Notes: generated by a model from the sequence alone, not told the origin. A DNA stretch of 64,000 bases from Verrucomicrobiota bacterium (GCA_036821485.1 DAISJM010000001.1:140313-204312), one strand, 5' to 3'. Counted from the stretch's first letter, positions 1 to 35,485 are shown. A program made the numbers and translations.

Positions 1-1
1 G

Positions 2-330: not shown

Positions 331-337
331 ATGTTGT

Positions 338-5467: not shown

Positions 5468-5570
5468 GCTTTCGGCGCGTTTCGTTGCTATCGCTCCGCC
5501 TCCGATCCGCGGTATCAGCGACATCCGCGGTTAAATGTCAGAAGCGGACATATTTGGATCGGAGTCTAAC

Positions 5571-5682: not shown

Positions 5683-5737
5683 GGAACTGAAGCAGGAGGT
5701 CGCGAGGGCCCACTGGTTACCGATCACTGACTACCGG

Positions 5738-6262: not shown

Positions 6263-6295
6263 AACTCACTCCCGCTACGAATTAATAACACTAGT

Positions 6296-6323
6296 AGTAT
6301 ACTAGTATGCATAGTATTTGCAA
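6296..6323 (-). promoter_or_regulatory. Sigma70-like promoter TTGCAA-16-TATACT with overlapping ATACTA direct repeats and ACTAGTA-N3-TACTAGT palindrome
   Basis: Read directly on the minus strand upstream of 6262; AT-rich patch. Confidence 0.55.
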
Positions 6324-6485
6324 GTTGCTTGTCTTACTGTGGTTAAACAAGCCACATATGGTGCGCAAGTGGCTGTGGCGAGGGGAGTTAGGGATGGTCC
6401 CGAGCTCCGCGTCTACGCGGAAGCAGACGGCGACGCTTAAGCGCCGCCAAGGCTTCCGGCTGAAGCCGGGACTCTGGCTGGATTC

Positions 6486-7913: not shown

Positions 7914-8029
7914 CTCGTCCGTCCTCCTCCCATGTCCAATACGCAGCGGACGCGGATGCGTTAAGGGTTGCGAACCGATGAGCGCGCAGGCCCCAAACAT
8001 CGGCGGCCGGTTCTGGTATGGTATCCGCC

Positions 8030-9193
8030 ATGAAAGATCGGCGGATGGGGCTGGTGTTGCTGCTGGCGTTTGTCGCGTTCGTGAGTCTTGGACTTCCGGA
8101 CAGCGTACTGGGCGTCGCGTGGCCGTCCATCCGGCGGACCTTCGGGCTGCCGCTCGATGCGCTCGGGCCATACCTTCTTGCGGGGGTCATTGGCTACTTT
8201 CTCTCCAGCTTCAACAGCGGCCGCATTGTTGCGCGATGGGGCGTCGGTCTTGTGCTGGCGGCGAGCAGCCTGCTCACCGCGCTGAGCCTGTTGGGATATG
8301 CGCTTTCCCCGGCGTGGATGGTCATCATCTGCCTTTCTTTTGTCGGCGGGCTTGGGGCGGGCGCGATCGATTCCGGGATCAACACCTTCGCGGCGGTACG
8401 CTTTACGCCGCGGCACATGAACTGGCTCCACGCGTGCTGGGGTATCGGTGCGGCGATGGGGCCGGCGATCATGACCGGCGTGCTGAAGATCGGCGCATCG
8501 TGGCGGTGGGGCTATGTGGCGGTCATGGGGATCCTGCTGCTGCTGACCATCGGATTCTTCGCGACGATTCGCCTGTGGACGATCGACAGCGCGCACGAGC
8601 AGAAGGCCGAACCCCACGCCCGGCGGCGAGATACGCTCGCGATTCCATCGACATGGCTGAGCATGGGCATCTTCTACGTCTACTGCGGCATCGAAGCATC
8701 GACGGGCCAGTGGAGTTACAGTCTGCTTGTGGAATCGCGCGACATCGCCCCGGTGACCGCCGGGTTGTGTGTGAGTCTCTACTGGGGCTCACTGACCGCC
8801 GGGCGATTCCTGATCGGCGCGATCGCGAATCATGTGCCGCCGGTGCGCCTGCTTCGCGTCTGCATGCTGGGCGCGGCAGCCGGGGTGATGGTGCTGGGCT
8901 TGCGCGTGGGGCATGGACTGGAGGCCGTGGGTCTGGGACTGACCGGGTTCTCGCTGGCGGTGATTTTCCCCACGATGATTACGCAGACGCCGGGCCGTTT
9001 TGCGTCGACGCACGTGGCTAACGTGGTTGGGTTTCAGGTCGCGGCTGCCAGTGTCGGGATCGCTACGATCCCGTGGCTGTTCGGCATTATCGCGCGCCGC
9101 GCAGGGCTGGAGGTCCTGCCGTGGCTGCTGCTGGGGGCGACCGTGATCATGATCATTCTTCACGAGGCCGTGGTGCGGCGCGGGAAGGCTTGA
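8030..9193 (+). CDS. MFS transporter
   Basis: About 12 hydrophobic segments; GLPDSVLGVAWP, GLGAGAIDSGIN and NWLHACWGIGA motifs. Confidence 0.85.
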   Translation: MKDRRMGLVLLLAFVAFVSLGLPDSVLGVAWPSIRRTFGLPLDALGPYLLAGVIGYFLSSFNSGRIVARWGVGLVLAASSLLTALSLLGYALSPAWMVIICLSFVGGLGAGAIDSGINTFAAVRFTPRHMNWLHACWGIGAAMGPAIMTGVLKIGASWRWGYVAVMGILLLLTIGFFATIRLWTIDSAHEQKAEPHARRRDTLAIPSTWLSMGIFYVYCGIEASTGQWSYSLLVESRDIAPVTAGLCVSLYWGSLTAGRFLIGAIANHVPPVRLLRVCMLGAAAGVMVLGLRVGHGLEAVGLGLTGFSLAVIFPTMITQTPGRFASTHVANVVGFQVAAASVGIATIPWLFGIIARRAGLEVLPWLLLGATVIMIILHEAVVRRGKA

Positions 9194-9217
9194 ATTGCGG
9201 AATGATTTGTCCTAACC

Positions 9218-9249
9218 CGGACATTGCACGAGAATTCGTGCAATGTCCG
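9218..9249. terminator. 14-bp stem hairpin downstream of the MFS gene (terminator or repeat)
   Basis: CGGACATTGCACGA-gaat-TCGTGCAATGTCCG; no U-tract. Confidence 0.4.
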
Positions 9250-9391
9250 CCCTGCGGGCTTCGACGCGCCGCGCCAGAGCGCGGATTGCTCAGGATAGGC
9301 CTTTCGGCGCGTCGAAGGATTAGCCTTGAGCAAGCTGCGGAGCAGCGCGCCGAAACCTTGGCCGCAGAAGTTTCTGCGGCCAAGGCGCTTA

Positions 9392-9420
9392 TTGCATGAG
9401 CGATTCCTCGCTCATATAAT
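9392..9420 (+). promoter_or_regulatory. Sigma70 promoter TTGCAT-17-TATAAT with a palindrome filling the spacer
   Basis: ATGAGCGA-TTCC-TCGCTCAT at 9396-9415 between the two hexamers, about 40 bp before ATG 9461. Confidence 0.65.
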
Positions 9421-9460
9421 AAACGGGCTAAAGCGGGAGCAACCTACCAAGGAGCAAGAC

Positions 9461-10957
9461 ATGAGAAAGACCGCCTTCGTGTTGATCGTCATCTCGTTGT
9501 GTTTCGCCGGTGTAGGGGCCGCGTGGGCTCAGGATGCGGGTGCGCTGGTCCAGCACGCCAACACATGTCTGCGTGACGCGCAGAACCACTTCTTTGGAGG
9601 GCGGATGTCTCAAGCTGAGGCAAGCCTCGCCGGGGCGGAGGCCTCTGTGACGGCGCTCAAGGGCGTGGATTCCGCCAACGTCCAAATCGCCTCGCTGGAA
9701 CAGAAGTGCGCGAAGATGCGGAAGGATATCGATGCTCGGAAGCCGAAGGCCGCGACTTCTCCGGCCGCCCCGGCCGCGACTACCGCCGCGCCGGCAGGCG
9801 ACAAGCTACCGTCCGGCGCGCAGTTCCGTCTCAAGGAAGCAGGTCGCAGTCTGGACAAGGTGGATCGTATCTTGAGCGGCGTCTCGTCGGCCGACTACAA
9901 GGTCGAGGCCGCGCGCGCCGCCGTGCAGGAGGCGAAGGACAAGTTGGCCGAGATCACGTCCATGTTTGGCGCACAGGCGAGCCCCGATGCGCCGGAGATG
10001 AAGGCGGTCAGCGATCGCATCGCGGCGGCCGAGAAGCAGATCAACGGCGTTCAGGCTGGCGCGGCGCAGGCAGCCGTTCAGCAGGACAAGGTCAAGGCTG
10101 TGGCGGAGGAGTGGCTGAACAAGATGAAGCCCTACGTGATGGGGCAGGGCAACAGCGAGCACAACCCGGACAAGTACCTTGTGCCGGGCAGCACGAGCGA
10201 TCTCAAGGAACTGGTGCGCCGCCAGGCGTTATGGCGTGAGGCCACAGCGTTGCTGGCGGAATATGAGAAGGCCGGGTTGAGCAACGTGTCCGATGAACTG
10301 GCGGAAGCCGAGCGGCAGCTTCGCTACGCGGTGAAGTCGTTCGATGAATCCTATAAGAGTCACATCGAGCGGGCCGTGCAGGATGCCGAACGGCGCGCGG
10401 GGGAGATCGATACATTCCTGAAGCGGCAGGAGGCGGCGGCCGGTCAGGCCATTCTGCTGGAGAAGGACCAGCTCGGCGAGTTGCAGAAGAAGATCGACGA
10501 GGCAGGCGGGTTGGCCGGGATCGCCGATGCGCGCGTGAGCGCGTTACGTTCCATGTTCTCCGGATTGCAGAAGCGGGATGCTGCGCTCCGGCAGGCCCGC
10601 GTGGAGCAGACGCGTATGACCGCGGACCGCTACACCAGCGAGGACCTCGCACAGTTGAAGCAGCGCGCAGAGGCCATCACGCGGGAGTCGCTTGCGAACG
10701 CGAACATTCTCCGCACGACCATCACCAGCGCCGGTTGGAAGGAAGAGAGCGTGATTGAGCCGACGGATACGACGCACACGGCCCTTCGTTTCCGCACGAC
10801 GCGGAGCGTGACGGCGCAGGTGGCGGCGAAGCAGGGCGACAAGGTTCAGCTCCACACGCTCGATCTCAGCAAGGATCTGCAGGCCGGCGGAGCATGGGGT
10901 CCGGTGTATGGGCACATCATGTTCTCCGATCCCATGCTGGAGAAGAACGTAAAGTAG
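9461..10957 (+). CDS. Secreted alpha-helical/coiled-coil hypothetical protein
   Basis: AAGGAG RBS; signal peptide MRKTAFVLIVISLCFAGVGAAWA; Ala/Glu/Lys-rich body and beta-rich C-terminus. Confidence 0.75.
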   Translation: MRKTAFVLIVISLCFAGVGAAWAQDAGALVQHANTCLRDAQNHFFGGRMSQAEASLAGAEASVTALKGVDSANVQIASLEQKCAKMRKDIDARKPKAATSPAAPAATTAAPAGDKLPSGAQFRLKEAGRSLDKVDRILSGVSSADYKVEAARAAVQEAKDKLAEITSMFGAQASPDAPEMKAVSDRIAAAEKQINGVQAGAAQAAVQQDKVKAVAEEWLNKMKPYVMGQGNSEHNPDKYLVPGSTSDLKELVRRQALWREATALLAEYEKAGLSNVSDELAEAERQLRYAVKSFDESYKSHIERAVQDAERRAGEIDTFLKRQEAAAGQAILLEKDQLGELQKKIDEAGGLAGIADARVSALRSMFSGLQKRDAALRQARVEQTRMTADRYTSEDLAQLKQRAEAITRESLANANILRTTITSAGWKEESVIEPTDTTHTALRFRTTRSVTAQVAAKQGDKVQLHTLDLSKDLQAGGAWGPVYGHIMFSDPMLEKNVK

Positions 10958-12882: not shown

Positions 12883-13110
12883 CCGGCGGCACCCTCGGAG
12901 CAGTGTAACCACCAATAGACACTAATGGACACTGATACGGGACGGTGAGGATGCGAGTTCGGGTTGGTGTCCCTCGCTGGTGGAGTATCCCCTTCGTTAG
13001 ATTCTGCTCAATACCCCCTCAACCTTTTGCTTGTCGCCGCATCGTTTGCTTGTCAGCATACCTGCGGGAGGAAGATGTCCGGCGCGAGGCCGGGACAGGC
13101 ATTTTTCATC

Positions 13111-16100
13111 ATGGGCAAGAAGGACCACGTCAGTCCCCCGGATGCCGACGGCCGTATTCCGGCCGGCAAGACCATCTCTGAATTTCTATCACAGGAAGGC
13201 CATGCCCGCGGCGTGGATCTCCGCGGTGGTGAGCCCTACGCCGAGTCTTCCATTCTCCGCGTGCAGGGCGGGGGGCGGTACGAAGTTGGCCCCGTCATCG
13301 CCCGCGGTGGCATGGGGGTCATTCACCAGGCGCGCGATCTGAATTCGCGGCGCGTGGTCGCGTTGAAGCTGCTGCCTCGCGATGCGCCGTGTCCAAGGGA
13401 GGACCTCCTCCGCTTCATCCGCGAGGGCCAGCTTACGTCCCAGCTCGAGCACCCGAATATCGTCCCCGTGCACGACATCGGTTTGGATGAATCGGGTCAG
13501 ATGTACTACACGATGAAGCTGGTCGAGGGCCAGACGCTGACGAGCATCTTGCAGGGCATCCGGAAGAACGATGCCGCGATGCTGGCGGAGTATCCGCTGG
13601 CCCGCCTGCTGAACATTTTCCAGAAGGTGTGCGATGCCGTCGCTTTTGCGCACTCGAAAGGCGTGGTGCACCGGGATCTGAAGCCCGACAACATCATGGT
13701 CGGCAGTTTCGGCGAGGTGCAGGTGATGGACTGGGGGCTGGCGCGCATCCTGCGCGCGATGGAAGAGGCGTCGGAGGATGCCGGGGAACGGCGGGCGTCG
13801 TGGGCCGACCGGGAACGGCTGCAGCAGGAAGAGGGTGGGCCGATTCCCACGGACGATTTTGGAGATACGCTCAAGACGATCAGCGGAAGAATCATGGGCA
13901 CGCCGGGCTTTCTCGCGCCCGAGCAGATTCTCCAGGATGCCGCGCAGCCGCCGGGCATGAAGGCGGATGTCTACTCCCTCGGCGCGGTACTCTACGCCAT
14001 CCTGACCCTGCGGCCGACGGTGAAAGGCGCCGACATTTCAGAAATGTTGCGGCATATCGTGGCGGGCGATTTCCCTGCGCCGGCCACGTTCAATGCGGCC
14101 GATGGCGAGGATGCCGGGCGGGCGCGCGAGACGAAGGCCGGATCGGTGCGACAGGGCGGATTCCCGCATTGCCCCGACGGTTGGATACCTACCGCGCTTT
14201 CGGATATTGCCATGAAGGCGCTGGCGACCCGGCCGGAGGATCGTTACAGCTCGGTGCAGGAGCTGCAGCGCGAGATCGAGGATTACCAGAATGGCTACGT
14301 ATGGCACCTGGTGATCGATGAGGATTTCTCGGACCCCGGCGCGTTGTCGCGTTGGGTGGTGTCGGGTGGCCGCGCCGAGATTCAGGACGGCGAATTGCGT
14401 TTGCGCGAGGGCGAGCCACAGGTGTTGATGCTCCGGCGTGAGGTGCCGGGTGATGTCCGCATCGAGTTTGAATGCCGCCAGGTGGGAAGCTACCTGAATT
14501 GCATGGGTTGCTTCATGAACGCGATCCGCGCGGATAACTACCGCGAGATTCCGTGGAGCGGCTACGAGTTTGAGTATGGCGGCTACGAGAACTCGCGCAA
14601 CGCGATCCATCGCTCCAACTCGCAGATGTGGATTGATCCCGCCGCGCCGCTGGCCTCCGACATCAAGTACGAGGTCCTCGCGGAACGCGTCGGGTCGCAC
14701 CTGCGGATGGTGGTCAATGGCCGGGAAGTCGTGGCGCTGACCGATCAGGACCCGTTGTCGGGCAGCGATCGCGTGGCGGTGGGATTCGTGGGGTGGAACA
14801 CGGACACGCGGTTCACGCGGATTCGGATTTCCACGCTGGGCACGCCGTGGAAGGGCGACGTGCTGGATGTTGCCGAGCGGCAGATTCAGAAGGGCCGTTA
14901 CGATGCGGCCATCGGGTTGTTCGAAGATACGCTGGAGTCCTTCCCGGATGCCGAACGGCGGCGGCGCGCGGAGGCGGGTCTGCGCACGGCCCGGCAGCGG
15001 CGCAATTTGGGCCGCCAGTTGCCGGCGTGGAATGCCGCGCTGCAGAAGGCGTGGCCCGGCATGGGGATCGAGTTGCAGGTGGTCAACGATGGGCTGTCGC
15101 TCAATCTCAACGAACTGCCGGTGAGGAACCTGGAACCACTGCGGGGCATGCCGCTCAACATTCTCTATTGCGCGCACGGCGAGATTGCCAGCCTGGAACC
15201 GTTGCGGGGCATGCCGCTGACCGCGTTGAACTGCACGGGAAATCCGATCCGGACATTGGAGCCGCTGCGTGGGATGCCGTTGACGACCCTGCTGGCCGAG
15301 GATTGTCCCGTCGCAGATTTGGAACCGCTGCGCGGCATGAAACTCAAAATGCTGCAGATCGGCTTGAGCGAGGTGGTTGACCTTGAGCCCTTGCGGGGCA
15401 TGCCGCTGACTTTCCTGCACTGCTGGTCATCGCGCGTGGAAAGCTTGGAGCCGCTGCGCGGCATGCGGCTCGACACGCTGAACTGCGCCGGTAACCGGAT
15501 CACGGGCTTGGAGCCGCTCGCGGGCATGCCGCTCAACAACCTGCACTGCGGCGGCAACCGGATCAAGTATCTCGAGCCGCTCGCGGGCATGCCGCTGACC
15601 GTGTTGCATTGCGGGGACAACCAGATCGAGGATATCTCGGTGCTGGCCGGACTGCCGCTGACGATTCTCGGTTGCCACAGCAACCGGATCACGACGTTGC
15701 GCCCGCTGCTCGGCGTACCGCTGGCGTCCGTCACCTGCGGGGATAATCCGATCCGCGACCTGGGGCCGTTTGTGGCGCGCCCGCCGGAAATCATCCACTT
15801 CGAGAGTGAAAGTCTTCCCGATGCCGAACTGGAAAAACTGCGCTCCCAGTGGTCGAAGAATCCCGAGTTCGCCCGGCACGCAAGCGAAGTAGAGACGCTG
15901 CTGCTCCTTCGTCGCGGCGATGTGAAGGGGTTGAAGGCGCGGGCGGCGGAATTCCGGGGACACCGCTATCTCTTCATTCCAAAATTCATGCGATGGGACG
16001 ATGCTCGCGTTTACTGCGAGAAGCTGGGCGGCCATTTGCTGACGATTACGTCGCGCGAAGAGGATGAGTTCATCGCATCGCTTTTTGAAGGCGGCTGTTT

Positions 16101-16287
16101 CTTCTGGATGGGTTTGTTTGTGAGCGAGCGCGGTCCTGAATGGGTGACGGGCGAGCCGTTTACCTACAAGAACTTCGTCGGCGAAATGCACGAAATGTGC
16201 CGCGGTCCGAAAGCCTTTGCGCGCTTCTGGCGCGCCGACCATGTGGCCGATGCGCACAACGGTTTCATGATCGAGTGGGATGCGTAG
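13111..16287 (+). CDS. Hanks-type Ser/Thr kinase fused to a beta-jelly-roll-like domain, about 10 x 21-aa LRRs and a C-type-lectin-like domain
   Basis: ARGGMG, VALK, HRDLKPDN, DWGLAR, GTPGFLAPEQ, DVYSLG; LEPLRGMPL repeats at about 15127-15770; WDDARVYCEKLGGHLLTITS. Confidence 0.85.
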   Translation: MGKKDHVSPPDADGRIPAGKTISEFLSQEGHARGVDLRGGEPYAESSILRVQGGGRYEVGPVIARGGMGVIHQARDLNSRRVVALKLLPRDAPCPREDLLRFIREGQLTSQLEHPNIVPVHDIGLDESGQMYYTMKLVEGQTLTSILQGIRKNDAAMLAEYPLARLLNIFQKVCDAVAFAHSKGVVHRDLKPDNIMVGSFGEVQVMDWGLARILRAMEEASEDAGERRASWADRERLQQEEGGPIPTDDFGDTLKTISGRIMGTPGFLAPEQILQDAAQPPGMKADVYSLGAVLYAILTLRPTVKGADISEMLRHIVAGDFPAPATFNAADGEDAGRARETKAGSVRQGGFPHCPDGWIPTALSDIAMKALATRPEDRYSSVQELQREIEDYQNGYVWHLVIDEDFSDPGALSRWVVSGGRAEIQDGELRLREGEPQVLMLRREVPGDVRIEFECRQVGSYLNCMGCFMNAIRADNYREIPWSGYEFEYGGYENSRNAIHRSNSQMWIDPAAPLASDIKYEVLAERVGSHLRMVVNGREVVALTDQDPLSGSDRVAVGFVGWNTDTRFTRIRISTLGTPWKGDVLDVAERQIQKGRYDAAIGLFEDTLESFPDAERRRRAEAGLRTARQRRNLGRQLPAWNAALQKAWPGMGIELQVVNDGLSLNLNELPVRNLEPLRGMPLNILYCAHGEIASLEPLRGMPLTALNCTGNPIRTLEPLRGMPLTTLLAEDCPVADLEPLRGMKLKMLQIGLSEVVDLEPLRGMPLTFLHCWSSRVESLEPLRGMRLDTLNCAGNRITGLEPLAGMPLNNLHCGGNRIKYLEPLAGMPLTVLHCGDNQIEDISVLAGLPLTILGCHSNRITTLRPLLGVPLASVTCGDNPIRDLGPFVARPPEIIHFESESLPDAELEKLRSQWSKNPEFARHASEVETLLLLRRGDVKGLKARAAEFRGHRYLFIPKFMRWDDARVYCEKLGGHLLTITSREEDEFIASLFEGGCFFWMGLFVSERGPEWVTGEPFTYKNFVGEMHEMCRGPKAFARFWRADHVADAHNGFMIEWDA

Positions 16288-18406: not shown

Positions 18407-20917
18407 CTACGGCAGGCGCACGCCGAGGCGATAAAATCGACGTTCGGATGCGCAGGCATTGGTGACCGAGATCATTCCGTTGCGGCCGGGCAGGTTGGAG
18501 AAGACCGTCGACCACGAGCCGGTGGGGCTGTTGTCGCAGAAGCGCAGGCTGTAGTAGCGGTGGCCCGCGGCGGTGAATGAGAGGATTGTCTGGTCCGGCC
18601 CGATGCCGGGGACAATGTCGAGCGCCAGCGCGGTGGCTCCGCTGGTCGGCGAACTGCACGCGATGTACTCGTCCAGATTGGACAGCCTGTCGTTATCCGC
18701 GTCCGCCGCCGCATCGTTGCTGGACGTGTTCAGTCCCTGCTGCTGTTCCCAAATGTCCGGCATGCCATCGGCATCGGCGTCGATTGAAGGCGCGATGAGT
18801 ATGAGTTCATTGGTGCCCGTTCCCTCGGGAAGGGAGAGGTTCTGCACAACGGAAGTCGTCGTGCCCACGACGATAGTCAGCTTGTAGGTTCCGTGGAATC
18901 CGCGGAAGTTCAGGACGCCGTAGGTGTCGGTGATTTTGTTCGTGTGGGTGGTCCACGAAGCGAGAAGTTGTTCGTACATGCGACCGGCGGCGTTGGTGGT
19001 CCAGTCGGCGTTGACGATTGCGGCGTCCGCGCCGCGCCAGTGGTTGCTGCTCCAGAAGCCCCACATGAGAATGCCGTCGACGCCGGGATGGCTGAACGCG
19101 GTTTTATAGAAGGTCTTCAGCAACCGCGCGCGCTCGACCTCGTCGGGATGCGCGACATCGAACTCCGAACACCAGATCGGCAGGTTCAGTTCGGCGAGCG
19201 TGTTGAGGCGATTGAGCACGAGGTACGGATTGATTTCCCACATGTGACACTGCGCCCCGACGCCGCCGACCGGCGCGCCGCTTTCGATGAGATCGCGAAT
19301 GTGGGTCACGTACTTGTCGGTGTCGGAATAGGAGACGACGCCATAGTCGTTGACGAATAGTTTCGCGTCGGGATCCAGTTCCTGCGCGCGCTGGAACATC
19401 CAGGTTCGGGCGGTGTTGCCAAGGTTGTTGGAGTAGAAATCGCCGTGCAGCATCTCGTTGTTTACGTCCCAGTGCTCGAAGTGGTCGGCATAGCGCGGGA
19501 CGATGGCGTCGAGGCGGTTGGAGACGGCCGCGAACAGGTCGGCGGATGAGTTGGTCAGATCCTGCACCCAATCCTGCACGTATTGTTGGACCTCCCAGAA
19601 GATGCAGTGCCCGCGCATGCGGATGCCGTTGGAGCTGCAGAACGCGTACATGGTGTCGGCGTCGCCATAGCTGAAATTGGTCTGGTCGGGCTCGTTCCAG
19701 CCCCACTTGGTTTCGTTCTCGAACACGGCCCATTCGAAATGGTTGGTGAAGAAACTCCGGTATTGGCTATTGCTGATGACGTGGTAGCTGAGCGCGGAGC
19801 CGAACGCAAAGTCGTGCTTCACCTGCCGGATATCGACCGCGGCGTTGGTGAGGGGGCGGCCAAGGCAGTCGTAAAGCGCGATGCGGACATCGCGCTTGCG
19901 GATCGACTCAATACGCGCGTCGGCGTCCGCTTCCCACGAGCCGCTGCCGACGACGGCCGCATCGTCGATATAGAAAGACACGCCGGCGTCCGGACCCTCG
20001 ACGTAGATGTTCAGTTCCGACAGCGTGCCGGTGTATTCGAGCGTGTAGGCGCCGATCAGTTGGACCCATTGGTTGCTGTAGGCGGTCGCGTTGGCAATGT
20101 TGGTCCACGTGGAGATGCCGTTGGCGGTCTTCTTGACGGTGAGGGACACGTTGGCGGTTGCGGCATTGGCGAGGCGGATCCATGCGCTGTTGGTGTAGGT
20201 GTAGCCGTTGGCCATGATATTGAGGAGATCGTGTACCGGTCCCTGCCAGTACTGATCGCGCGAGTGGATGTAGCCGGCGCGGCTTCCGCTGTGGACGTGC
20301 GCGGTGGTGGTGGTGACGATGGCCGGCGAGTACGCCCACCAGTAGGCGGCGCCTTCCTCGAAGCCGGGATTGGTGAGCAGGTTGTCGCTGGGCGTCGGTG
20401 GCGCGCCGACCCACACGATGGCCATGCGGTCGACGTACAGCGTGTCGAGCGACTTCTTGTTGTTCCTGTGGTTCGTATCCTGCACGCGGATGAAAATGGT
20501 GCCCATGATCGAACTCGGCAGCGTGAAAGTCTGCGGCGTGTTGTCGTCGGAGGACTTGGTCACCGTCAGCATATTGCTGAACGTGCTGCCGTCCTGCGAA
20601 TAGGAGAAAACGAAGTCATCGCCATCGCTGTTGCTGGGCCGGTAGGCCTCGACGTAGAAGGTGAGGGCGGTGCCGCCGGTGACGTAGAACGTCCACTTGT
20701 GTTCGAGGTAGCTGTAGCGGCTGTTCACGACCTCGGTGAGCGACTGGTAGATGTTGTCGCTGGAGTGGGTGTTGGTGTAGCTGCCGTTGATGGTGCCGGA
20801 AAGAAACAGCTGCCCACCCGCCACGTTGGTGACGGACTGCGCCATGGCGGTGGAACTCCAGCACAGCGTGGCAAGCAGGGCGAGGACGACTGAACGACTG
20901 AACAACCTGTACGTCAT
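18407..20917 (-). CDS. Secreted modular GH10 endo-xylanase (unknown N-terminal module, CBM4/22-like domain, GH10, DxDxDG repeats plus C-terminal domain)
   Basis: NLLTNPGFEEG CBM start; FENETKW, MRGHCIFW, acid/base WDVNNE and nucleophile WCSEFD. Confidence 0.88.
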   Translation of the reverse strand: MTYRLFSRSVVLALLATLCWSSTAMAQSVTNVAGGQLFLSGTINGSYTNTHSSDNIYQSLTEVVNSRYSYLEHKWTFYVTGGTALTFYVEAYRPSNSDGDDFVFSYSQDGSTFSNMLTVTKSSDDNTPQTFTLPSSIMGTIFIRVQDTNHRNNKKSLDTLYVDRMAIVWVGAPPTPSDNLLTNPGFEEGAAYWWAYSPAIVTTTTAHVHSGSRAGYIHSRDQYWQGPVHDLLNIMANGYTYTNSAWIRLANAATANVSLTVKKTANGISTWTNIANATAYSNQWVQLIGAYTLEYTGTLSELNIYVEGPDAGVSFYIDDAAVVGSGSWEADADARIESIRKRDVRIALYDCLGRPLTNAAVDIRQVKHDFAFGSALSYHVISNSQYRSFFTNHFEWAVFENETKWGWNEPDQTNFSYGDADTMYAFCSSNGIRMRGHCIFWEVQQYVQDWVQDLTNSSADLFAAVSNRLDAIVPRYADHFEHWDVNNEMLHGDFYSNNLGNTARTWMFQRAQELDPDAKLFVNDYGVVSYSDTDKYVTHIRDLIESGAPVGGVGAQCHMWEINPYLVLNRLNTLAELNLPIWCSEFDVAHPDEVERARLLKTFYKTAFSHPGVDGILMWGFWSSNHWRGADAAIVNADWTTNAAGRMYEQLLASWTTHTNKITDTYGVLNFRGFHGTYKLTIVVGTTTSVVQNLSLPEGTGTNELILIAPSIDADADGMPDIWEQQQGLNTSSNDAAADADNDRLSNLDEYIACSSPTSGATALALDIVPGIGPDQTILSFTAAGHRYYSLRFCDNSPTGSWSTVFSNLPGRNGMISVTNACASERRFYRLGVRLP

Positions 20918-21016
20918 ACGAATGATACGGGTAACAATCTAAGCAATATAGTACTTGGTGGGCATGCGGTTGTGTAGGGCAAACGGAAAGAAAAGGCGGT
21001 TTTCGCGCCGCCGGGC

Positions 21017-21646
21017 CTATTCCGTGGAGATGCGGTAATGGTAGGGGCCCGCTCCGGTGGCCGTCTCGTCGGTGTAAACATTGATCGTCGGCGTGGCGGT
21101 GATGTTGGTCTTCAGGTTGGAGAAGTTCGTGGTGAGAAGGCCGCTGGATCTTTGCAGGCGGTACTTTTTCCCGGCGACGCTGGACCACGAGATCACGGAG
21201 TTCGACGCTTGAAACCTGAGACTTGAAACTTGGAACACTGAGGCCGCGTTAGTCGGCTGCGTGCCTGCGAGCAGTTCGTCCGTATTCCACATTCCGTCGC
21301 CGTCGGTGTCCGGGTCCGTCGGGTCCGTCTGATCCTGGTAGTGTTTCAGGTTGCTGATGGTGTCCTGGTTGAAATCGCCGGCGGCGGTGTTGGTGAGACC
21401 GTTGAACCAAACCAACTCCCACGCGTCGGGGAGGGTGTCGCCCTCGGTGTCCGCTTCTCCCTGGATGCCGATGGCGACGGACTGCGTGATGTTGCCGAAC
21501 GAGTCGTAGGCGTAGTTCACGCGTTGCGTGCTCGAGAGGCGCGACTCCGACAGTCGCCCATCGCTGTCGAAGACGAACGATTGAGAGCGCGCTGTCACGG
21601 TCAGCGCGGCCCATGCCATGCACCACACTATGATTCGTCTTGTCAT
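21017..21646 (-). CDS. Secreted single-YD-repeat protein with DxDGDG repeats and ...HYR C-terminal domain (RHS partner)
   Basis: ATG overlaps the RHS TGA (TGATG); signal peptide; FDSDGRL...YAYDSFGNIT; DTDGDGMWNTDELLAGTQP. Confidence 0.75.
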   Translation of the reverse strand: MTRRIIVWCMAWAALTVTARSQSFVFDSDGRLSESRLSSTQRVNYAYDSFGNITQSVAIGIQGEADTEGDTLPDAWELVWFNGLTNTAAGDFNQDTISNLKHYQDQTDPTDPDTDGDGMWNTDELLAGTQPTNAASVFQVSSLRFQASNSVISWSSVAGKKYRLQRSSGLLTTNFSNLKTNITATPTINVYTDETATGAGPYHYRISTE

Positions 21647-24600
21647 CAGAATGAGCTCGGCATCGAATTCCAGACGGCCTGTTCCTCCGGCGTCATCGGA
21701 GTCTCCGATACGACGCACCGCCATTGTGCTTCCAGCGCGCGCTGCCTTTCTCCGTTTTCCCAGGCAGAGCGCTCATACTGTTCAAGCAACTTCGCCGCGA
21801 GCGCCTCCAGTTCGCTGGCTTCGACGGGACCGATGATGCCGGCCTCGGCCAGACCCTTTCCAAATCCGCTCAACTCCGATCCTTGAAGGATGTCGTCGCT
21901 GATGGATGTTGCCATTTCCACCGAGCCTTCGAGGTCAAAGGTGTTGTCGTCCTCCGTGCCTTCCGGGTCTATCCGGTCCACCGGATTGCCGCGCACGTAG
22001 CGGTATACATTCACATCCGGCAGCAGGCCCAGCGGATCGCGCTGGAGGAATCGGCCGGCGGTCGCGTCGTAACAGCGGGCCTTCATGAAGTAGAGCCCGC
22101 CGCCTTCGTCCGTCACGCCGTACCGGCCGATGAAGGTGAACGGGTTGTTCATCCGGCTGTAACCGCCCGCCGGCTGGCCGTAGGCGTCGTACCGATAGAG
22201 CGCCGACAGTTTCCCTTGCTCGTCGGTCATCGCGATGGTGCTGCCGTTCTTGTCGGCGTGGTAGAAGTGAGTGCCCCTGCCGGCGAACCACGCCGCGACC
22301 AGCGCCCGGCCGCGGTAGAAGTAGAGCGCGGTGACGCGGGAGGCTCCGTCATCTTCGCAGATCAGTCGATCGGCGTGGTCGTAGTACAGCCGCCGTGCGG
22401 AGCCCCCGGTTGTCACGCTCGCGCGGCGCCCGAGCGCGTCGTAGGTCCACGCGCTGTTCGTTCCCCCGCGAGTGATGGAGGTCAGCCGGTTTGCGGTGTC
22501 GTAGGCGGCGGTAAAGTTGGTTCCGGCGGTCTGATTGCCGTCCGCATCGTAGGTGCAGGCGGATGTGTTGCGTTGGGTGGCCTCGTTGGCCACGTCGAAC
22601 CGCGCGCGGTTCGTGGCGGGGGACTGCAGGGGCGACCACGGGATCAACCCACCTTGCTTCACGATGTTCGTCGTTTGACCGGCGGCATCGCGGTAGTAGG
22701 CAAGCTGGATGAGGTTGCTGGTGCCGGCGCGGTGGAGGATTCCGGTGGGATCGTTGGCGGCGTCCCAGCCCCAGTAGGTATCGCCGCCGTTCGAGCGCTG
22801 TTCGCGGAGCGGATTGCCTTCCGCGTCATACGTGAAGCGAATCCAGTTCGCACCCCACGCCATGTTGGTGACGCGGTCACGGCTGTCGCAGGCGTAGGAA
22901 ACGACGGTGCCGTCGGGATAGGTCATGGTGGTGACGTTGCCCTCCGGGTCGCGCGCGAACGACAGCGTCCTGCCGCCGGGATAGCGCGCGGCAATCACGT
23001 CGCCGCGAGCGTCGTAGGTGTACGAGAATGAACCGGCATCGTTGGAGAAATTCGTCAGCCGCAACGCGGCGTCGTAGGCGAAGACGCTGGCTGCCCCGTT
23101 TTCCACGCGGCCGATCAGCAACCCGTCCGCGTCGTAGGTGAAGCCTGTCCGCTGGAAGCGGGCGTTGAACGTGTTGGTGAGTCGGCCCAGCGGATCGTAG
23201 TAGCAGCTCGTGAAATGCCACAGCGGATCGTTGATCGACTGCACGCGATTCATGCAGTCGAAGCTGAAGCTGTAGAAGTCGCTGGAGAACGCGCTGGTGC
23301 TGACCGACGAGATGTTGTCGTTCGCATCGTAGGTGTAGTACATGGAGCGGCCGAGCGCGGTGATGTGGTTGGTCATCCGGCCCGCGGCGTCGTACCGGTA
23401 CGTGTTGGTTCGCGCGAGCGGATCGACGATGCGCTTGAGCTTGTTGAAGTTGTTGTAGGCGTAGGTCGTGCGACGCCCCATGGGGTCGATCGACGCCGTC
23501 GGCCACAGCATGGCGTTGCGCTCGACCGTGGTGGTCCGACTGTTCCCGTCGATCCGCTGCGATTCCGCGCAGCAGTCATACACGATCCGTTCGGTTGTGC
23601 CGTCGGGCCGGATGGTTCGCGTGCGCCGCCGCAGCGCATCGTATTCGAAGCGGGTGACGAAGCCGCGCCGGTTGGTGATGGCGACGACATCGAAGCCCGC
23701 GGCGTCATAACCGAAGGTCGCGGAGTACCCGAGCGGATCGGTCATGCGGGTGGGTTTGCCGAGCGAGTTGAACGCGAAGGTGGTGCGTTCGCCGGCGGCG
23801 TTGACGGCGGCCGTGACGAGGCCGAGCGCGTTGTACTGCCAGCGTTGTTCGCGGCCGCCGAACGAGACGAGATTGGTGAGGTTGCCGCGGCTGTCGTATC
23901 CGAATCGCATGGCCTGTCCAAGCGCGTTGGTTGCCGCCGCGATGCGGCCCTTGGCGTCGTAGCCGCGGGTTTCGACCGTGCCGTCGTAGTTCACGCGCCG
24001 CAGCAGGCGCCCGTGTGGATCGTAGCTCATGCGCATCGTGCAGCCGCCGGGGTTGGTGACGGTCGTCGCCCAGCCGTTGCTGTACGAGGTGAGCGTATAG
24101 CGGTCCGTGGGGTCCTTGACCTGCGTGGTCATTCCGTTGCTGCTGTAGTAGATCCAGAATCCGCCGGTCGGATCGTCACGCCAGACCGCGCGGTTGTCCA
24201 TGGGCTGGCTCATCGCGTAGTAGTAATTGGTGCGGCCGAGCGCGTCCGCGACCGTTGAAATCCGCGTGTACGTTCCTGCCACGCTGCCGGTCTCCCAGGT
24301 GAAGGTCCACGTCCGGCCCTCGGTGGACATGTTCGTCATGTAGTGCTGGGCGTTGTAACGAAAGAGGGTTGTGTTGCCGGCCGCATCGCGGCTTTCGACA
24401 AGATTCTGGTTCGCGTCGTAACGGTACGCGCAGGCCGCGCCGCCCGGCACGATCACGTTGGTGCAGCGGCCCTGTGCGTCGTACTGGAATCGGGTTGAGC
24501 GGCCGACGGCGTCGGTGATGTTGGTCAGGCGCGTGCCGTTGTAGCCGAGCGTCACCCGGTTCGAATTGCCGTCCTCGATGCGCACCAGCGGAATCCAGGC

Positions 24601-25830
24601 ATCGCGCACATCGGCGCTTTCGTAATACCACGTGTCGCCGGTCCGGGGATCGAACCACTCGTAGACCCAGACGCCGCGGGCCGTGTCGTTCGTGCGCCGG
24701 AAGCGGCGCGTCTCGCCGGGCGGCACGACATAGTCGCCGTCCCATGTGACGAGCGGAGTGACGGAATCCGACGAGCGCGCGCTCGTGTTGGTCACGTAGT
24801 ACACGGGGATTTCTCCGCCCGCCTGGTTCGTGTCGATGCTGCCCGGCGGAACGCCGTAGTACATCGCCTGGCCGGAGCCGCCGTAGCGGGAGACGGTCAG
24901 GTACGAGCCGGAGAGATGGGACTCGGCGGAGAACGTCCAGCCGCGTCCGAACATGCCCGTCGCCGCGGGGTTCGCGTTCCATGTGCGGGTGAAGGTGAGG
25001 TCGGGGCCCGGGCTGGAGTAGGCGTAGTCGGTGTCTTCGACGAGGAGGTTCAGTGTGCACGTGTTGATGCGGAAGCCGGGCAGGCCCATCGGCACGCACC
25101 CGCCGCAGCCCTCGGGTTTGTGGAACTTCACCGGCGGCTCGAAGCCGGTGTATTCCGGCAGGCCCATGAGCCATTCCCAGTAGCCGATGGCGAGCGCGTC
25201 TTTCGGGATGATGTAGATGTACACGAATTTCATGTCGCGGATGTCGGGCCAGTAGTTCGTCTGCGAATCAAGGGTGGCCGAGAGGATTTCAATCTGGCTG
25301 TACGTCCGGTTGGGCACAAAGGGATCGCGGTGTGTGAGATTGAGCACGGCGGGCGGCGACCCCTCCGCGTGCCAGACCAGGTGCGAGCGCCAGAGGCAGT
25401 GCGTGTAGGGAATGTCGATCCGGCCCTGCCGCTCAAGCGGGATCGAGTTGGAGAGCAGCTGGGTATTGGCCACGCTCATCGAAACGCCGTAGCTCATGTC
25501 CGGCTTCAGCGGCGCGGCGTAGGTGATCTGCGTTATCTCCGGTGTGTCGGACCGGCTGACCAGTTGAATTTGCGCGTCGGGAATTTCGGCGATCGACCAC
25601 TGCACCGTGATGAGTCCGCCGGTGGAGGTCATGCCCGGGGCGATTGCGGGCACAAGGAGGACCAGCACGGCGACGATTTTCCAAGCGTTGGAAAAATGGC
25701 GGCGCGATTTTCCAAGGGTTGGAAAAACTGAACGGGATTTTTCCAAGGGTTGGAAAAACCGTCCCGCACACCACCTCGTCACGGCTTTGTACACGTTGAC
25801 GCCCATGGTGAGAACAAGCGCCCGGCCCAT
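21646..25830 (-). CDS. RHS/YD-repeat protein with N-terminal signal peptide and RHS-associated core; short acidic C-terminal tip
   Basis: AAGGAGG upstream; DUF6531-like TFTRTWN...MFGRGW; more than 25 YDxxG repeats; core RFLQRDPLG...NPVDRIDPEG; start codon uncertain (25830 or 25806). Confidence 0.88.
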   Translation of the reverse strand: MGRALVLTMGVNVYKAVTRWCAGRFFQPLEKSRSVFPTLGKSRRHFSNAWKIVAVLVLLVPAIAPGMTSTGGLITVQWSIAEIPDAQIQLVSRSDTPEITQITYAAPLKPDMSYGVSMSVANTQLLSNSIPLERQGRIDIPYTHCLWRSHLVWHAEGSPPAVLNLTHRDPFVPNRTYSQIEILSATLDSQTNYWPDIRDMKFVYIYIIPKDALAIGYWEWLMGLPEYTGFEPPVKFHKPEGCGGCVPMGLPGFRINTCTLNLLVEDTDYAYSSPGPDLTFTRTWNANPAATGMFGRGWTFSAESHLSGSYLTVSRYGGSGQAMYYGVPPGSIDTNQAGGEIPVYYVTNTSARSSDSVTPLVTWDGDYVVPPGETRRFRRTNDTARGVWVYEWFDPRTGDTWYYESADVRDAWIPLVRIEDGNSNRVTLGYNGTRLTNITDAVGRSTRFQYDAQGRCTNVIVPGGAACAYRYDANQNLVESRDAAGNTTLFRYNAQHYMTNMSTEGRTWTFTWETGSVAGTYTRISTVADALGRTNYYYAMSQPMDNRAVWRDDPTGGFWIYYSSNGMTTQVKDPTDRYTLTSYSNGWATTVTNPGGCTMRMSYDPHGRLLRRVNYDGTVETRGYDAKGRIAAATNALGQAMRFGYDSRGNLTNLVSFGGREQRWQYNALGLVTAAVNAAGERTTFAFNSLGKPTRMTDPLGYSATFGYDAAGFDVVAITNRRGFVTRFEYDALRRRTRTIRPDGTTERIVYDCCAESQRIDGNSRTTTVERNAMLWPTASIDPMGRRTTYAYNNFNKLKRIVDPLARTNTYRYDAAGRMTNHITALGRSMYYTYDANDNISSVSTSAFSSDFYSFSFDCMNRVQSINDPLWHFTSCYYDPLGRLTNTFNARFQRTGFTYDADGLLIGRVENGAASVFAYDAALRLTNFSNDAGSFSYTYDARGDVIAARYPGGRTLSFARDPEGNVTTMTYPDGTVVSYACDSRDRVTNMAWGANWIRFTYDAEGNPLREQRSNGGDTYWGWDAANDPTGILHRAGTSNLIQLAYYRDAAGQTTNIVKQGGLIPWSPLQSPATNRARFDVANEATQRNTSACTYDADGNQTAGTNFTAAYDTANRLTSITRGGTNSAWTYDALGRRASVTTGGSARRLYYDHADRLICEDDGASRVTALYFYRGRALVAAWFAGRGTHFYHADKNGSTIAMTDEQGKLSALYRYDAYGQPAGGYSRMNNPFTFIGRYGVTDEGGGLYFMKARCYDATAGRFLQRDPLGLLPDVNVYRYVRGNPVDRIDPEGTEDDNTFDLEGSVEMATSISDDILQGSELSGFGKGLAEAGIIGPVEASELEALAAKLLEQYERSAWENGERQRALEAQWRCVVSETPMTPEEQAVWNSMPSSF
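25677..25757. repeat. TTTTCCAA-N3-TTGGAAAA palindrome triplet, 31-bp period, inside the RHS ORF
   Basis: Units at 25677, 25708 and 25739 with 12-bp spacers. Confidence 0.92.
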
Positions 25831-25935
25831 TCCGGAAGCATGCCTCCTTGGGGCGTATTCTAGGAGATCGGGCGGAATCTGTCACGGTCATGCCGCGCTG
25901 GATTTTGGGGCGTTCCGGCCCTAGAGTGGGGCGCC

Positions 25936-33146: not shown

Positions 33147-33289
33147 CGATGGCCCCATCAATAGCAGAAAAGCCGACATGTTGCGCCATATCCTGCGATT
33201 CTTGCTTGTGCCCCAATTAGCTTGTGTTTTTGGGATAAAATGCAGATAAGTCTCCATTGAGAGCGGTTGCAGTAACGGGGGGCTGTTCC

Positions 33290-35485
33290 ATGTGTTCCAA
33301 GCATTTCATTGCACTGCAGAAGGTGGCGTTTCTGCTGGGCTCCTTTCTGCTGGCCGGGACGGCCTTGTCAGCAACGCTGCATGTAGATGCCGCAAACCCA
33401 TCCTGCGACAACGTGGAGGGCGCACCGTACTGCTCTCTCCAGTCGGCGATTGACGCCGCGACCCCGGGCGACACGATCATCGTCAGCAATGGCGTCTACG
33501 CCGGCGAGATCGTTGTGAACAAGCCGCTGACGATCGAGGGCTCAGGCGATACGAGGCTGGCCGGCAGCGCCAACCAGCGCGCGGTGTTTGTCCAAGCTGG
33601 CCATGCGGTGACGCTTCGCAATGTGATCATCGTAAACGGCGATAAGGACATCGGTGGCGGCATCCTAAATGAAGGCACCCTGACGATCATCGACAGCACG
33701 ATCGTGAGCAACACGGCAAACGGGAACCTGACGCAGGTGACCGGACGTGGCGGCGCAATCTACAACGCTGCGACGGTCAGCTTGGAGCGCTGTGTCGTGG
33801 AGTGGAACCGGGCGGTGGGCGACTACGGCTACGGCTATGCGTCCCGCGGCGGTGCGATCTACTGCACGGCCAATGCCACCCTCGTGATCAGCAACAGCAC
33901 GATCCGTGACAACACAGCGGACAGGACCGGCAACACCAGTATCCGTGACGGTGTGGATGGCTACGGTGGGGGCATTTGTGCCGAGGGCTACACGCTCCTC
34001 GTGGACTCGACGGTTGCCGGCAACACGGCGTGCGGATCGTATGGCTACCGCTACGGCGGCGGCTCGTACGGCGGCGGTATTCACAACCAGGGCACGCTGA
34101 TCATCCGCAACTGCACGATCGCGAGCAACGTCGCGGACCTGAGCCTGACCCGCGCCTACTACGGCGGCGGTGGCGGCGCGATCTATAACACGGCGACGGT
34201 CATCGTGGAGCGTTCCTCGGTGGAGTACAACCGGGTGTTCACGGACTTCAATAGCCTGGGGTTCGTGGTTCGCGGGGGCGGGATCGGCTGCGCGGCCGGC
34301 ACCACGCTCGTGATCAGCAACAGCGTGATTCTCGGGAATATGGCCGAGGGAAGTCCGGGTTCCCGTCCTCAGATCGGTGGTGGGGGTATTTGCTCCGAGG
34401 GCGGCACGCTCCTCGTGAACTCGACAGTCGCCAGCAATACGGCGTACGCAGTCGTCGATGCGAGCGGCGCGGCGTACGGGGGTGGCATCTACTCCCTGGG
34501 CACGCTGGAGATTCTGAACTGCACGATTGCGCAGAACTACGCCCACGCCGGGGGAACTCCGAGCGGTTACTCTGCTGCCCAAGGTGGCGGCGTTTACGCG
34601 CTGAATCGCTCCGTCACCCTCCGCAACACGATCCTGGCCGACAACCTCGCGACCTCCACCCAGCCCGACTTGTACGGAACGGTCAACTCACTCGGCTATA
34701 ACCTCATCGAGAGTTTCTGCACCATCACCAACGTCACCGCGTCGGTGATTACCGGAACGGATCCGTTGCTTGCGCCATGCCGGTCGTACGGTGGCGCGCG
34801 CCCCGCGTTCCTTCTCCGGCTCGGCAGCCCGGCGATTGACCACGGCGGCGCGGGCGGCCCGTCCGCCGACCAGCGCGGGGTCCCGCGCCCCCTGGACTTC
34901 GACGGTGTCGCGAACGCCGATGACGGTTCTGACATCGGCGCCGTCGAGTTTGACAATCGTGATTTGGATTCGGACGGGATGTTCAACGACTGGGAGTTCC
35001 AGAACAGTCTCAACCCAACCAACGCGGGAGACGCCACGCAAGACCCGGACGGCGACGACCTGAACAATCTGGCGGAGTTTCAGCATGTGACCGATCCCGG
35101 AAACTCCGACACCGACGGCGACGGCATGGGGGACGGTTGGGAATCGCTGTACGCCTTCAACCCGACCAACGCGGCTGATGCACTGGAAGACTTGGACGGT
35201 GACGGCGCGCTGAATCGCGACGAGTTCATCGCGGACACCCATCCGACGAACGCGGCATCGAGGTTCGTGCTCAGCATCGGCTGGACGGCGACGCAGAACG
35301 TGTATTGCCTGTCTGTGCCGTCCTCCACCGCGCGGCAATACCTCTTGCAGTACAGAACGAACCTGGAGAGCGGCGCATGGAATGATGTGGCGGCCGAGAC
35401 CGCCGGCAACGGCGGCACGTTGTCCGTGAGCTCGACCAACACGTTGTTCTGCATCTACTACCGCGCGAAGGTGCGGAAGCCGTAG
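33290..35485 (+). CDS. Secreted beta-helix (PMP/pectin-lyase-like repeat) protein with choice-of-anchor-Q-like domain, DxDGDG repeats and ...YYR C-terminal domain
   Basis: SLQSAIDAATPGDTI; repeated GGAIYN/GGGI..N motifs; GYNLI...DPLLAP...SPAIDHG...DQRG...DIGAVE. Confidence 0.82.
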   Translation: MCSKHFIALQKVAFLLGSFLLAGTALSATLHVDAANPSCDNVEGAPYCSLQSAIDAATPGDTIIVSNGVYAGEIVVNKPLTIEGSGDTRLAGSANQRAVFVQAGHAVTLRNVIIVNGDKDIGGGILNEGTLTIIDSTIVSNTANGNLTQVTGRGGAIYNAATVSLERCVVEWNRAVGDYGYGYASRGGAIYCTANATLVISNSTIRDNTADRTGNTSIRDGVDGYGGGICAEGYTLLVDSTVAGNTACGSYGYRYGGGSYGGGIHNQGTLIIRNCTIASNVADLSLTRAYYGGGGGAIYNTATVIVERSSVEYNRVFTDFNSLGFVVRGGGIGCAAGTTLVISNSVILGNMAEGSPGSRPQIGGGGICSEGGTLLVNSTVASNTAYAVVDASGAAYGGGIYSLGTLEILNCTIAQNYAHAGGTPSGYSAAQGGGVYALNRSVTLRNTILADNLATSTQPDLYGTVNSLGYNLIESFCTITNVTASVITGTDPLLAPCRSYGGARPAFLLRLGSPAIDHGGAGGPSADQRGVPRPLDFDGVANADDGSDIGAVEFDNRDLDSDGMFNDWEFQNSLNPTNAGDATQDPDGDDLNNLAEFQHVTDPGNSDTDGDGMGDGWESLYAFNPTNAADALEDLDGDGALNRDEFIADTHPTNAASRFVLSIGWTATQNVYCLSVPSSTARQYLLQYRTNLESGAWNDVAAETAGNGGTLSVSSTNTLFCIYYRAKVRKP

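Follow-up and report, generated by a model that had tools for sequence, protein, structure and literature searches.

A secreted, YD-headed partner protein coupled to a Sec-type RHS cage in Verrucomicrobiota: a candidate adaptor for cage localisation

Introduction

Most mechanistic work on RHS proteins has been done on Tc toxins and on the Rhs proteins that type VI secretion systems (T6SS) carry. In both, as their structures have established, the repeats form a closed cocoon (or cage), the protein cleaves itself at a DPxG motif, and a C-terminal tip of ~100 residues is kept inside. RHS toxins of the WapA type, found in Gram-positive bacteria, use the Sec pathway for export and are kept on the cell surface by means of a localisation module that is separate; in WapA this module consists of wall-binding domains in cis at the N-terminus, and the cognate immunity gene wapI follows. 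For the Sec-dependent RHS toxins of Gram-negative-type bacteria, we know of no account of how they get out of the periplasm or remain on the cell surface. Here we analyse an RHS gene with a Sec-type leader, together with the gene of a small secreted protein (the partner) that follows it, in a 64,000-nucleotide stretch of DNA from a Verrucomicrobiota metagenome-assembled genome (MAG; GCA_036821485.1 DAISJM010000001.1:140313-204312, one strand). This whole stretch is called the window, and all coordinates are window positions unless another locus is named. We show that the two genes form an operon that is conserved as a unit, and propose that the partner may be an adaptor that would give the RHS cage a localisation module in trans.

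The window locus resembles several described systems in part. Like the T6SS Rhs effectors (RhsP, 8h8a/8h8b; RhsA, 7q97; the S. bongori Rhs, 8qjb-d; Tse5; Tse15; Tre23-Rhs, 7pq5), the window RHS protein has a YD cocoon of the same size, a DPxG autoprotease core and a variable C-terminal tip. It differs from these effectors in that PAAR, VgrG, prePAAR and an Eag chaperone are all missing and a Sec-type leader is present instead; moreover, the locus has no recognisable toxin domain or immunity gene, and a secreted partner with a YD head occupies the immunity position. The Tc toxin TcB-TcC (4o9x, 4igl) provides a precedent for a cocoon made from the YD strands of two polypeptides, with a sheet that is continuous across their interface, and its encapsulated, autoproteolysed and hypervariable C-terminal payload is also like the one presumed for the window RHS family. 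However, TcB and TcC each contribute about half of the shell, whereas the window RHS protein alone is full-size and the partner brings only two hairpins. The window pair also lacks a beta-propeller gate, an SpvB domain and a TcA gene, and the partner's tail is a generic exoprotein module. In contrast to WapA, the localisation module would lie on a separate protein, and no immunity gene comes next. Accessory domains of the teneurin type, namely an NHL propeller and an FN-plug, were not detected in the window RHS protein by a Pfam scan. Bacterial teneurin-like proteins (9ifo/9pt5) are surface-exposed YD shells that enclose a C-terminal toxin; the shell is reported to harbour a toxic protein, and immunity proteins are reported to be associated (PMC13018210).

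Its repeats, plug domain, core and variable tip place the window RHS protein firmly in the Rhs/YD cocoon family. At the same time, the locus has neither the recognisable toxin domain and cognate immunity gene of a canonical polymorphic-toxin locus nor any of the features of T6SS delivery.

The RHS and partner genes form a conserved operon

The ATG of the partner gene overlaps the stop codon of the RHS gene (TGATG; offset -1), and this coupling, already seen in the original prediction, is not peculiar to the window. About 25 full-length homologues of the partner were found (198-257 residues, 45-66% identity by BLASTP), all of the same layout; relatives are labelled Verrucomicrobiota or Opitutia, and homologues in alignment A1 are 39-65% identical to the window protein. 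Three true members of the family were found among GTDB species representatives, and a metagenome scan with the partner profile returned generic TSP3 proteins, with zero family members among the matches listed. A homologue search with RHS residues 201-800 returned mostly generic RHS proteins and two useful relatives (P0036 and P0037). An RHS gene precedes the partner gene at every locus with enough upstream DNA, amounting to 13 of 13 pairs at 12 loci (the window, L001, L003/L004, L005, L006 with two tandem pairs, L007, L009, L012, L013, L170, L172 and L174). In each case a DUF6531-RHS gene encoding ~1350-1450 residues ends at the partner start, which lies -20 to +11 nucleotides from the RHS stop, often with GGAGG inside the last RHS codons. 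The neighbourhood survey thus bears out the pairing that had been proposed from the window: the RHS and partner genes are a two-gene, translationally coupled operon that is conserved as a unit.

The genes flanking the operon differ at every paired locus. Since the pair recurs with unrelated flanking genes, the GH10/GH97 neighbourhood, which is specific to the window's own genome, is incidental. A functional link to GH10 and GH97, to which the original prediction had drawn attention, was rejected, as was a link to the divergent radical S-adenosylmethionine gene, because neither is conserved at any other locus. A terminator-like hairpin directly past the partner stop is suggestive of a separation between the pair and GH10; on this ground, GH10 and GH97 probably belong to a separate transcription unit.

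Several irregularities were noticed at the paired loci. The acidic last codons of several RHS tips (e.g., ...AEDWDE and ...GEEGQW) hold the GGAGG Shine-Dalgarno sequence of the partner, and the acidic C-terminal bias of the tips may in part be a constraint of translational coupling. L006 (positions 1-7015) carries a tandem duplication of the entire RHS-partner pair; its two tips differ, and so do the two partner heads, which are 29% and 26% identical to the window head. At three loci the RHS gene was called in two to four pieces next to an intact partner gene (L001, 6469-8465; L003, 5901-10008; L174, 8001-10978), and these fragmented calls represent frameshifts, assembly errors or decay.

The RHS shell is full-size and the partner carries a YD head

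As had been described from the sequence, the 1394-residue RHS protein has a Sec-type leader, the NPVDRIDPEG motif and an acidic tip of ~100 (here 103) residues, and no PAAR or VgrG was found by open reading frame (ORF) reading and Pfam/NCBIfam scans. Signal peptides, here and in the partner, were judged by eye in the sequence and not with a predictor; the leaders of the RHS orthologues are short and canonical. PAAR, VgrG, prePAAR, an Eag/DUF1795 chaperone and T6SS genes were absent from the RHS protein and from the 27 other window ORFs scanned, and no toxin domain was found in the RHS protein or these other ORFs. The protein matches Pfam RHS_repeat in 15 stretches (E 5e-79) and TIGR01643 in 12 stretches, DUF6531 at residues 255-307 (31 bits, cutoff 24) and the Rhs-associated core TIGR03696 at residues 1214-1291 (61.6 bits, cutoff 32.5). 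Both aspartyl-autoprotease motifs, RFLQRDPLG and NPVDRIDPEG, are intact in 12 of 12 relatives. The N-terminal domain that precedes DUF6531 had no Pfam match, and a homologue search with it came back empty, the domain being too divergent for the word index.

The shell itself appears complete. RHS residues 562-1292 are colinear with residues 421-1152 of the solved Rhs core of RhsP, 8h8b (sequence E 8e-44), and an AlphaFold2 (AF2) model of residues 196-1394 shows an uninterrupted and confident hairpin array (predicted local distance difference test score, pLDDT, 80-92). Confidence was low in the core and in the tip, which is disordered in the model apart from one long helix. By Foldseek, the RHS model aligned with T6SS Rhs cores at E ~1e-55 over ~1050 columns; its match to the teneurin-like fold was weaker (E 1e-38, TM-score 0.24), and that to the Tc BC fold much weaker (E ~1e-24). 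The original prediction had the partner supplying an RHS strand in trans. That such a strand completes the barrel was rejected, as the RHS shell is colinear with complete solved Rhs cores and of about the same size.

The layout of the partner was predicted correctly as to its signal peptide and its DxDGDG repeats, here the TSP3-type motif DPDTDGDG. Its YD head, read as a single hairpin, instead comprises two. In the AF2 model of the partner (made from a 20-sequence family alignment; mean pLDDT 73), a leader helix is followed by four beta-strands (residues 23-59), an acidic linker that is disordered, a TSP3 region that is short and helical, and a beta-sandwich of seven strands (residues 139-208). 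Pfam RHS_repeat was matched at residues 26-55 (23.2 bits, cutoff 22). The head can be taken as more than a chance match, because the YD-motif residues are conserved (D27 and R31 invariant, and G30, Y45, D48 and G51 nearly so, in 20 partner homologues) and because the head aligns to the solved Rhs structure 7pq5 by Foldseek. It is not a copy of one particular RHS repeat; this possibility was rejected, as the best matches fell at inconsistent positions. Further downstream, PF18884 (TSP3_bac) was matched at residues 113-134 at 20.4 bits, below its cutoff of 25. The motif DPDTDGDG is invariant in the 20 homologues, and its extension DPDTDGDG...N..E is invariant or nearly so. The sandwich matches Fn3 domains by Foldseek, e.g., the Fn3 domains of the pectate lyases PelI and Pel3.

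The partner's tail belongs to a widespread domain family

The C-terminal ~75 residues of the partner align with the C-termini of two other window proteins, the GH10 protein (18407-20917) and the protein at 33257-35485, in accordance with the original prediction. Subtilisins, GH10 and a beta-helix protein end in the TSP3-plus-sandwich arrangement without having a YD head. When the sandwich profile was compared with 1.84 billion representative proteins, 20,897 clusters were matched, 3,610 of them at E <= 1e-10. Among the best 150 of the 20,897 (P0047-P0196), all 38 single-copy matches end at most 3 residues from the C-terminus of the protein. It often comes behind TSP3 repeats and a choice-of-anchor Q domain. 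Its passengers vary widely (beta-helix, Kelch, PPC, Ig and pertactin-like domains), and those carriers that are named come from Kiritimatiellia, Verrucomicrobia and Lentisphaerae. The tail domain is covered by no Pfam or NCBIfam model, sorting-domain models included, and neither a YD-headed RHS partner nor a tail domain of such type was described in the literature searched.

The tail module directly follows a choice-of-anchor Q domain in four of four tested proteins, including the window protein at 33257-35485. Choice-of-anchor domains were named for surface proteins with alternative C-terminal anchors (bioRxiv 10.1101/2023.03.06.531300). The partner's tail resembles known C-terminal sorting domains, such as the type IX secretion system (T9SS) C-terminal domain, PEP-CTERM and LPXTG, in standing at the extreme C-terminus of many unrelated secreted proteins; it is a beta-sandwich. 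It differs from them in having no match to a curated model and in occurring in internal tandem repeats as well. We know of no T9SS in bacteria of the Planctomycetes-Verrucomicrobia-Chlamydiae (PVC) group. The tail is a candidate for an undescribed sorting or anchor domain of PVC-group bacteria.

Head and tail of the partner have different histories

The identities of the parts of the partner were compared with those of the RHS protein in all 36 pairs that nine complete loci allow. The identity of the head, the one RHS-specific part of the partner, rises and falls with that of the RHS body (Pearson 0.74), and no tracking of the RHS body was found for the identities of the TSP3 region (-0.27) and the C-terminal domain (-0.19). 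Between the window and its closest relative, L170, the RHS body is 68% identical (63-75% in most 100-residue segments), and identity within the partner falls from 82% in the head to 61% in the TSP3 region and 43% in the C-terminal domain. By the Nei-Gojobori method, the ratio of nonsynonymous to synonymous divergence (dN/dS) in the two closest pairs is 0.14 and 0.21 for the head and 0.17 and 0.19 for the RHS body. The synonymous divergence of the tail is higher or saturated, which indicates that the tail has had a different history.

A more distant RHS clade, represented by L173 (32% identity), points in the same direction. Its RHS proteins share Cys456 and Cys753/754, cysteines that are otherwise specific to the clade of the window RHS protein. 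L173 carries two RHS genes (6001-9869, plus strand; 13376-15090, minus strand), each followed by a protein of 149-150 residues with a leader and a YD head (Pfam RHS_repeat, E 4e-9 and 1e-8; hidden Markov model of the head, E 7e-10 and 2e-8). The tails of these small proteins are unrelated to that of the window partner; they are cysteine-rich and resemble the GCX_COOH "3-coathanger stack" domain at a score just below its cutoff (23.1 bits, cutoff 26). The same head is thus combined with an unrelated tail; the head is the constant, RHS-linked part of the partner and the tail the exchangeable one. One of the two L173 RHS genes seems to be frameshifted at the start of its tip, and transposases lie close by.

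A possible adaptor and its alternatives

We propose, with a probability of roughly 0.45, that the partner is an adaptor that would give the cage its localisation module in trans. With its C-terminus buried in the cage, the RHS protein would be unable to bear a C-terminal localisation domain of its own, and for this reason the domain would be supplied by the partner. The N-terminal YD hairpins of the partner would attach themselves to an exposed edge of the cage, probably through beta-sheet augmentation, and its tail would retain, export or target the complex at the cell surface. The tail would then do for the cage what it does for GH10, subtilisins and choice-of-anchor-Q proteins.

Several points weigh against such an adaptor. 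Because the shell has no missing hairpin, any docking would be an addition to the cage and not its completion; moreover, the head, a pair of generic YD repeats, corresponds to no specific part of the RHS protein. The co-variation of head and RHS protein could come from linkage alone. The partner family is small, and its ~25 members all come from MAGs and metagenome contigs. As for the tail, proteins with as many as 35 copies in internal tandem arrays were found as well, and it is therefore not exclusively a terminal signal; such arrays are more typical of the Ig-like domains of stalks and adhesins than of a pure secretion signal. We know of no sorting machinery for this domain, and none was searched for here.

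The partner could instead be a periplasmic chaperone or edge-cap, with hairpins that cover an exposed beta-edge of the RHS spiral during folding against aggregation or gate the shell, and with a tail that has no role in localisation. Translational coupling implies that the two proteins are produced 1:1, the head at the very N-terminus of the mature partner would offer a free edge strand, and head and shell are equally constrained. We nevertheless consider this explanation unlikely, since a simple cap needs no conserved tail of 150 residues made of TSP3 and Fn3 parts, and the TSP3 region is in fact the most conserved region of the partner (63%). The L173 clade, which keeps the head and swaps the C-terminal-type domain, likewise argues that the tail has a function of its own.

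Another explanation involves no physical coupling at all: the partner would be an independent secreted surface protein, whose head is an RHS remnant kept in part because it serves as the 3' homology arm when tip cassettes are swapped, the 5' arm being the conserved core. DNA homology is indeed present on both sides of the displaced tip. In a blastn comparison of the window and L170, homology of 71% runs through the RHS gene and ends at nucleotide 3867, the tip starts at nucleotide 3874, and homology returns (75%) at the mature N-terminus of the partner to fade past codon 92. The generic nature of the YD head and the independent recombination of the tail would also fit. However, purifying selection on the head acts at the protein level (dN/dS 0.14-0.21 at a synonymous divergence, dS, of 0.55-0.88), and the YD-motif residues remain invariant or nearly so across homologues that are 39-65% identical. 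In addition, the pairing is kept in all 13 pairs, even where the RHS gene is fragmented, and a hairpin pair of 40 residues is unlikely to fold alone. We regard this explanation as equally improbable.

If the adaptor reading is true, a conserved protein whose head is specific to RHS and whose generic tail can be exchanged would be a concrete answer to how Sec-dependent RHS proteins are localised. It would also represent a second mode of sharing YD strands between polypeptides, alongside TcB-TcC. The tail domain, unannotated and found in more than 20,000 protein clusters, is a candidate localisation signal in Verrucomicrobiota, Kiritimatiellia and Lentisphaerae, which are important polysaccharide degraders whose sorting of exoproteins is poorly understood.

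The RHS tips are hypervariable and have a single cysteine

The tips of the 12 relatives are 103-143 residues long, mostly acidic and of several unrelated sequence types. The window tip contains 21 D+E and 6 K+R residues after DPEG. The tips are on average 19% identical, as compared with 42% for the RHS body; in the closest pair, the tip is 22% identical and its dN is ~5 times that of the body. Homology breaks off sharply at DPxG, the hallmark of a displaced C-terminus as it is known from polymorphic RHS toxins. A subset of the tips has a common motif, ERRKxREA...C...P(D/E)S(F/Y), and an acidic end, and glycine-zipper or transmembrane-like segments are present in some (L005 and both L173 tips). 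No Pfam/NCBIfam match of any kind, to a toxin domain or otherwise, was obtained for the window tip and nine other tips at E <= 5, and no profile-profile (HHpred-type) search was made. As for an immunity gene, no ORF lies between the tip and the partner, and the downstream gene is conserved and does not co-vary with the tip.

The complex might be a non-toxic, teneurin-like adhesin or receptor, with the tip as filler under neutral drift; the original prediction had also called the device possibly non-toxic. Such a view is in line with the toxin-domain count (0 of 10 tips), the absence of an immunity gene, the acidity of the tips and the predicted structure of the window tip, which is largely disordered with one helix. 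We find it slightly more doubtful than the two explanations above. The autoprotease motifs are intact in 12 of 12 sequences, and displacement of the tip sets in precisely at DPxG, as it does in polymorphic toxins, although no toxin was identified. The narrow range of tip length and the one cysteine in each of the 12 tips indicate some constraint, and the glycine-zipper or transmembrane-like segments (L005, L173) likewise speak against mere filler.

That the partner is an immunity protein, neutralising the tip in the periplasm, is very unlikely: it directly follows the RHS gene and has a signal peptide, like immunity proteins against periplasm-acting toxins, but it is conserved while the tips change, its varying C-terminal domain ignores the tip (Spearman -0.07 between their identities), the heads of the window and L170 are 82% identical with tips at 22%, its generic exoprotein parts make up an architecture common to enzymes, and no immunity family was matched in Pfam/NCBIfam scans of it, so that, as originally predicted, the downstream gene is not immunity-like.

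Exactly one cysteine is found in each of the 12 otherwise unrelated tips. The RHS body has five invariant cysteines, at positions 242/245 (CGGC in most sequences), 456 and the 753/754 CC pair. The L173 clade also has Cys456 and the CC pair, both of which are absent from the other RHS proteins aligned. With the tip cysteine added, the count of conserved cysteines turns even, and a disulfide between tip and shell is possible. Under the adaptor reading, one may speculate that the tip is a polymorphic effector released on contact, and that its single cysteine tethers it to the conserved cysteines of the shell until reduced.

A wider generalisation can be offered only tentatively, and we hold it to be less probable than the adaptor role itself. 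Some Sec-dependent RHS cages of diderm bacteria might be served by small trans-acting adaptors, each made of a YD head that fastens to the cage and an interchangeable tail, which is TSP3 plus an Fn3-like domain in one clade and a coathanger-like domain in another. In that case the tail would be an undescribed and very common C-terminal localisation domain of the PVC group, and the immunity-less tips with a single cysteine would be effectors against non-kin that are released by reduction. Polymorphic tips that lack an immunity gene are a challenge to the usual view of paired toxins and immunity proteins.

Other features of the window

The features of the operon and of its surroundings are listed in Table 1.

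Table 1. Positions of the RHS-partner operon, its parts and related elements in the window
Feature	Position	Strand	Basis or remark
RHS gene, 1394 residues	21646-25830	minus	ORF reading and Pfam/NCBIfam; stop codon at 21646-21648
RHS N-terminal leader, codons 1-66	25633-25830	minus	Sec-type hydrophobic core KIVAVLVLLVPAIAPG; read by eye
RHS family-specific N-terminal domain, codons 67-254	25069-25632	minus	weakly conserved (10-43% identical to the window sequence)
DUF6531 plug-type domain, codons 255-307	24910-25068	minus	invariant Cys242/Cys245 just before it (CGGC in most sequences)
YD-repeat shell, codons 308-1213	22192-24909	minus	invariant Cys456 and Cys753-Cys754; Pfam/NCBIfam, AF2, Foldseek
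Rhs-associated core, codons 1214-1291	21958-22191	minus	contains RFLQRDPLG and NPVDRIDPEG, the two aspartyl-protease motifs
Hypervariable acidic tip, codons 1292-1394, 103 residues	21649-21957	minus	presumed encapsulated payload; one Cys, at 1372
Partner gene, 209 residues	21017-21646	minus	ATG overlaps RHS stop (TGATG; offset -1)
Partner signal peptide, codons 1-22	21581-21646	minus	leader MTRRIIVWCMAWAALTVTARS; read by eye; family consensus ends AxAQ; AF2 helix at residues 2-15
Partner YD head, two YD hairpins, codons 23-60	21467-21580	minus	mature N-terminus; Pfam, alignment, AF2, Foldseek
Acidic linker and TSP3-type, putatively calcium-binding region, codons 61-136	21239-21466	minus	highest conservation within the partner (mean identity 63%)
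Fn3-like beta-sandwich C-terminal domain, codons 137-209	21020-21238	minus	AF2, Foldseek, profile
Terminator-like hairpin, GGCGGCGCGAAAACCGCC then TTTTCTTTCC	20995-21012	minus	directly past partner stop; consensus match only, 5 sites vs 4.2 expected from shuffles
Promoter-like site GTGACA-17-TAGAAT upstream of RHS ORF	25857-25885	minus	consensus match only, 1 found vs 0.9 expected
Palindromic 19-mer, three tandem copies, TTTTCCAAnnnTTGGAAAA	25677-25757	no strand	31-nucleotide spacing; inside annotated RHS 5' end, codons ~25-51
Paralogous C-terminal module, end of GH10 xylanase	18407-18643	minus	related module outside the operon
Paralogous C-terminal module, end of choice-of-anchor-Q beta-helix protein	35252-35485	plus	related module outside the operon

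The palindromic 19-mer TTTTCCAAnnnTTGGAAAA occurs in nine copies in the window, arranged in tandem exactly 31 nucleotides apart at four places (5172-5221, 25677-25757, 41632-41681 and 63641-63690), with 0 expected by chance. Three of these places are gaps between minus-strand ORFs near gene starts, and the fourth, with three copies, lies in the 5' end of the RHS ORF. Because palindromes stand inside codons ~25-51, the start codon of the RHS gene is uncertain (ATG 25830, TTG 25746 or GTG 25668). The palindromes are likely an operator or an element similar to repetitive extragenic palindromic (REP) sequences. The possibility that they mark a shared regulon was rejected, as the genes beside the other copies have no common function.

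Two further observations concern regions outside the operon. A long minus-strand ORF (49856-51514) matches the Pfam family NAD-GH (PF10712), which we take to derive from the antisense strand of large NAD-glutamate dehydrogenase genes; on this account the real gene is probably on the plus strand at ~47.4-53.6 kb, and the minus-strand ORFs there are shadow ORFs. A plus-strand gene that adjoins the GH97 gene (12964-16287) encodes a protein of 1107 residues that combines a Ser/Thr kinase, leucine-rich repeats and a C-type lectin domain.

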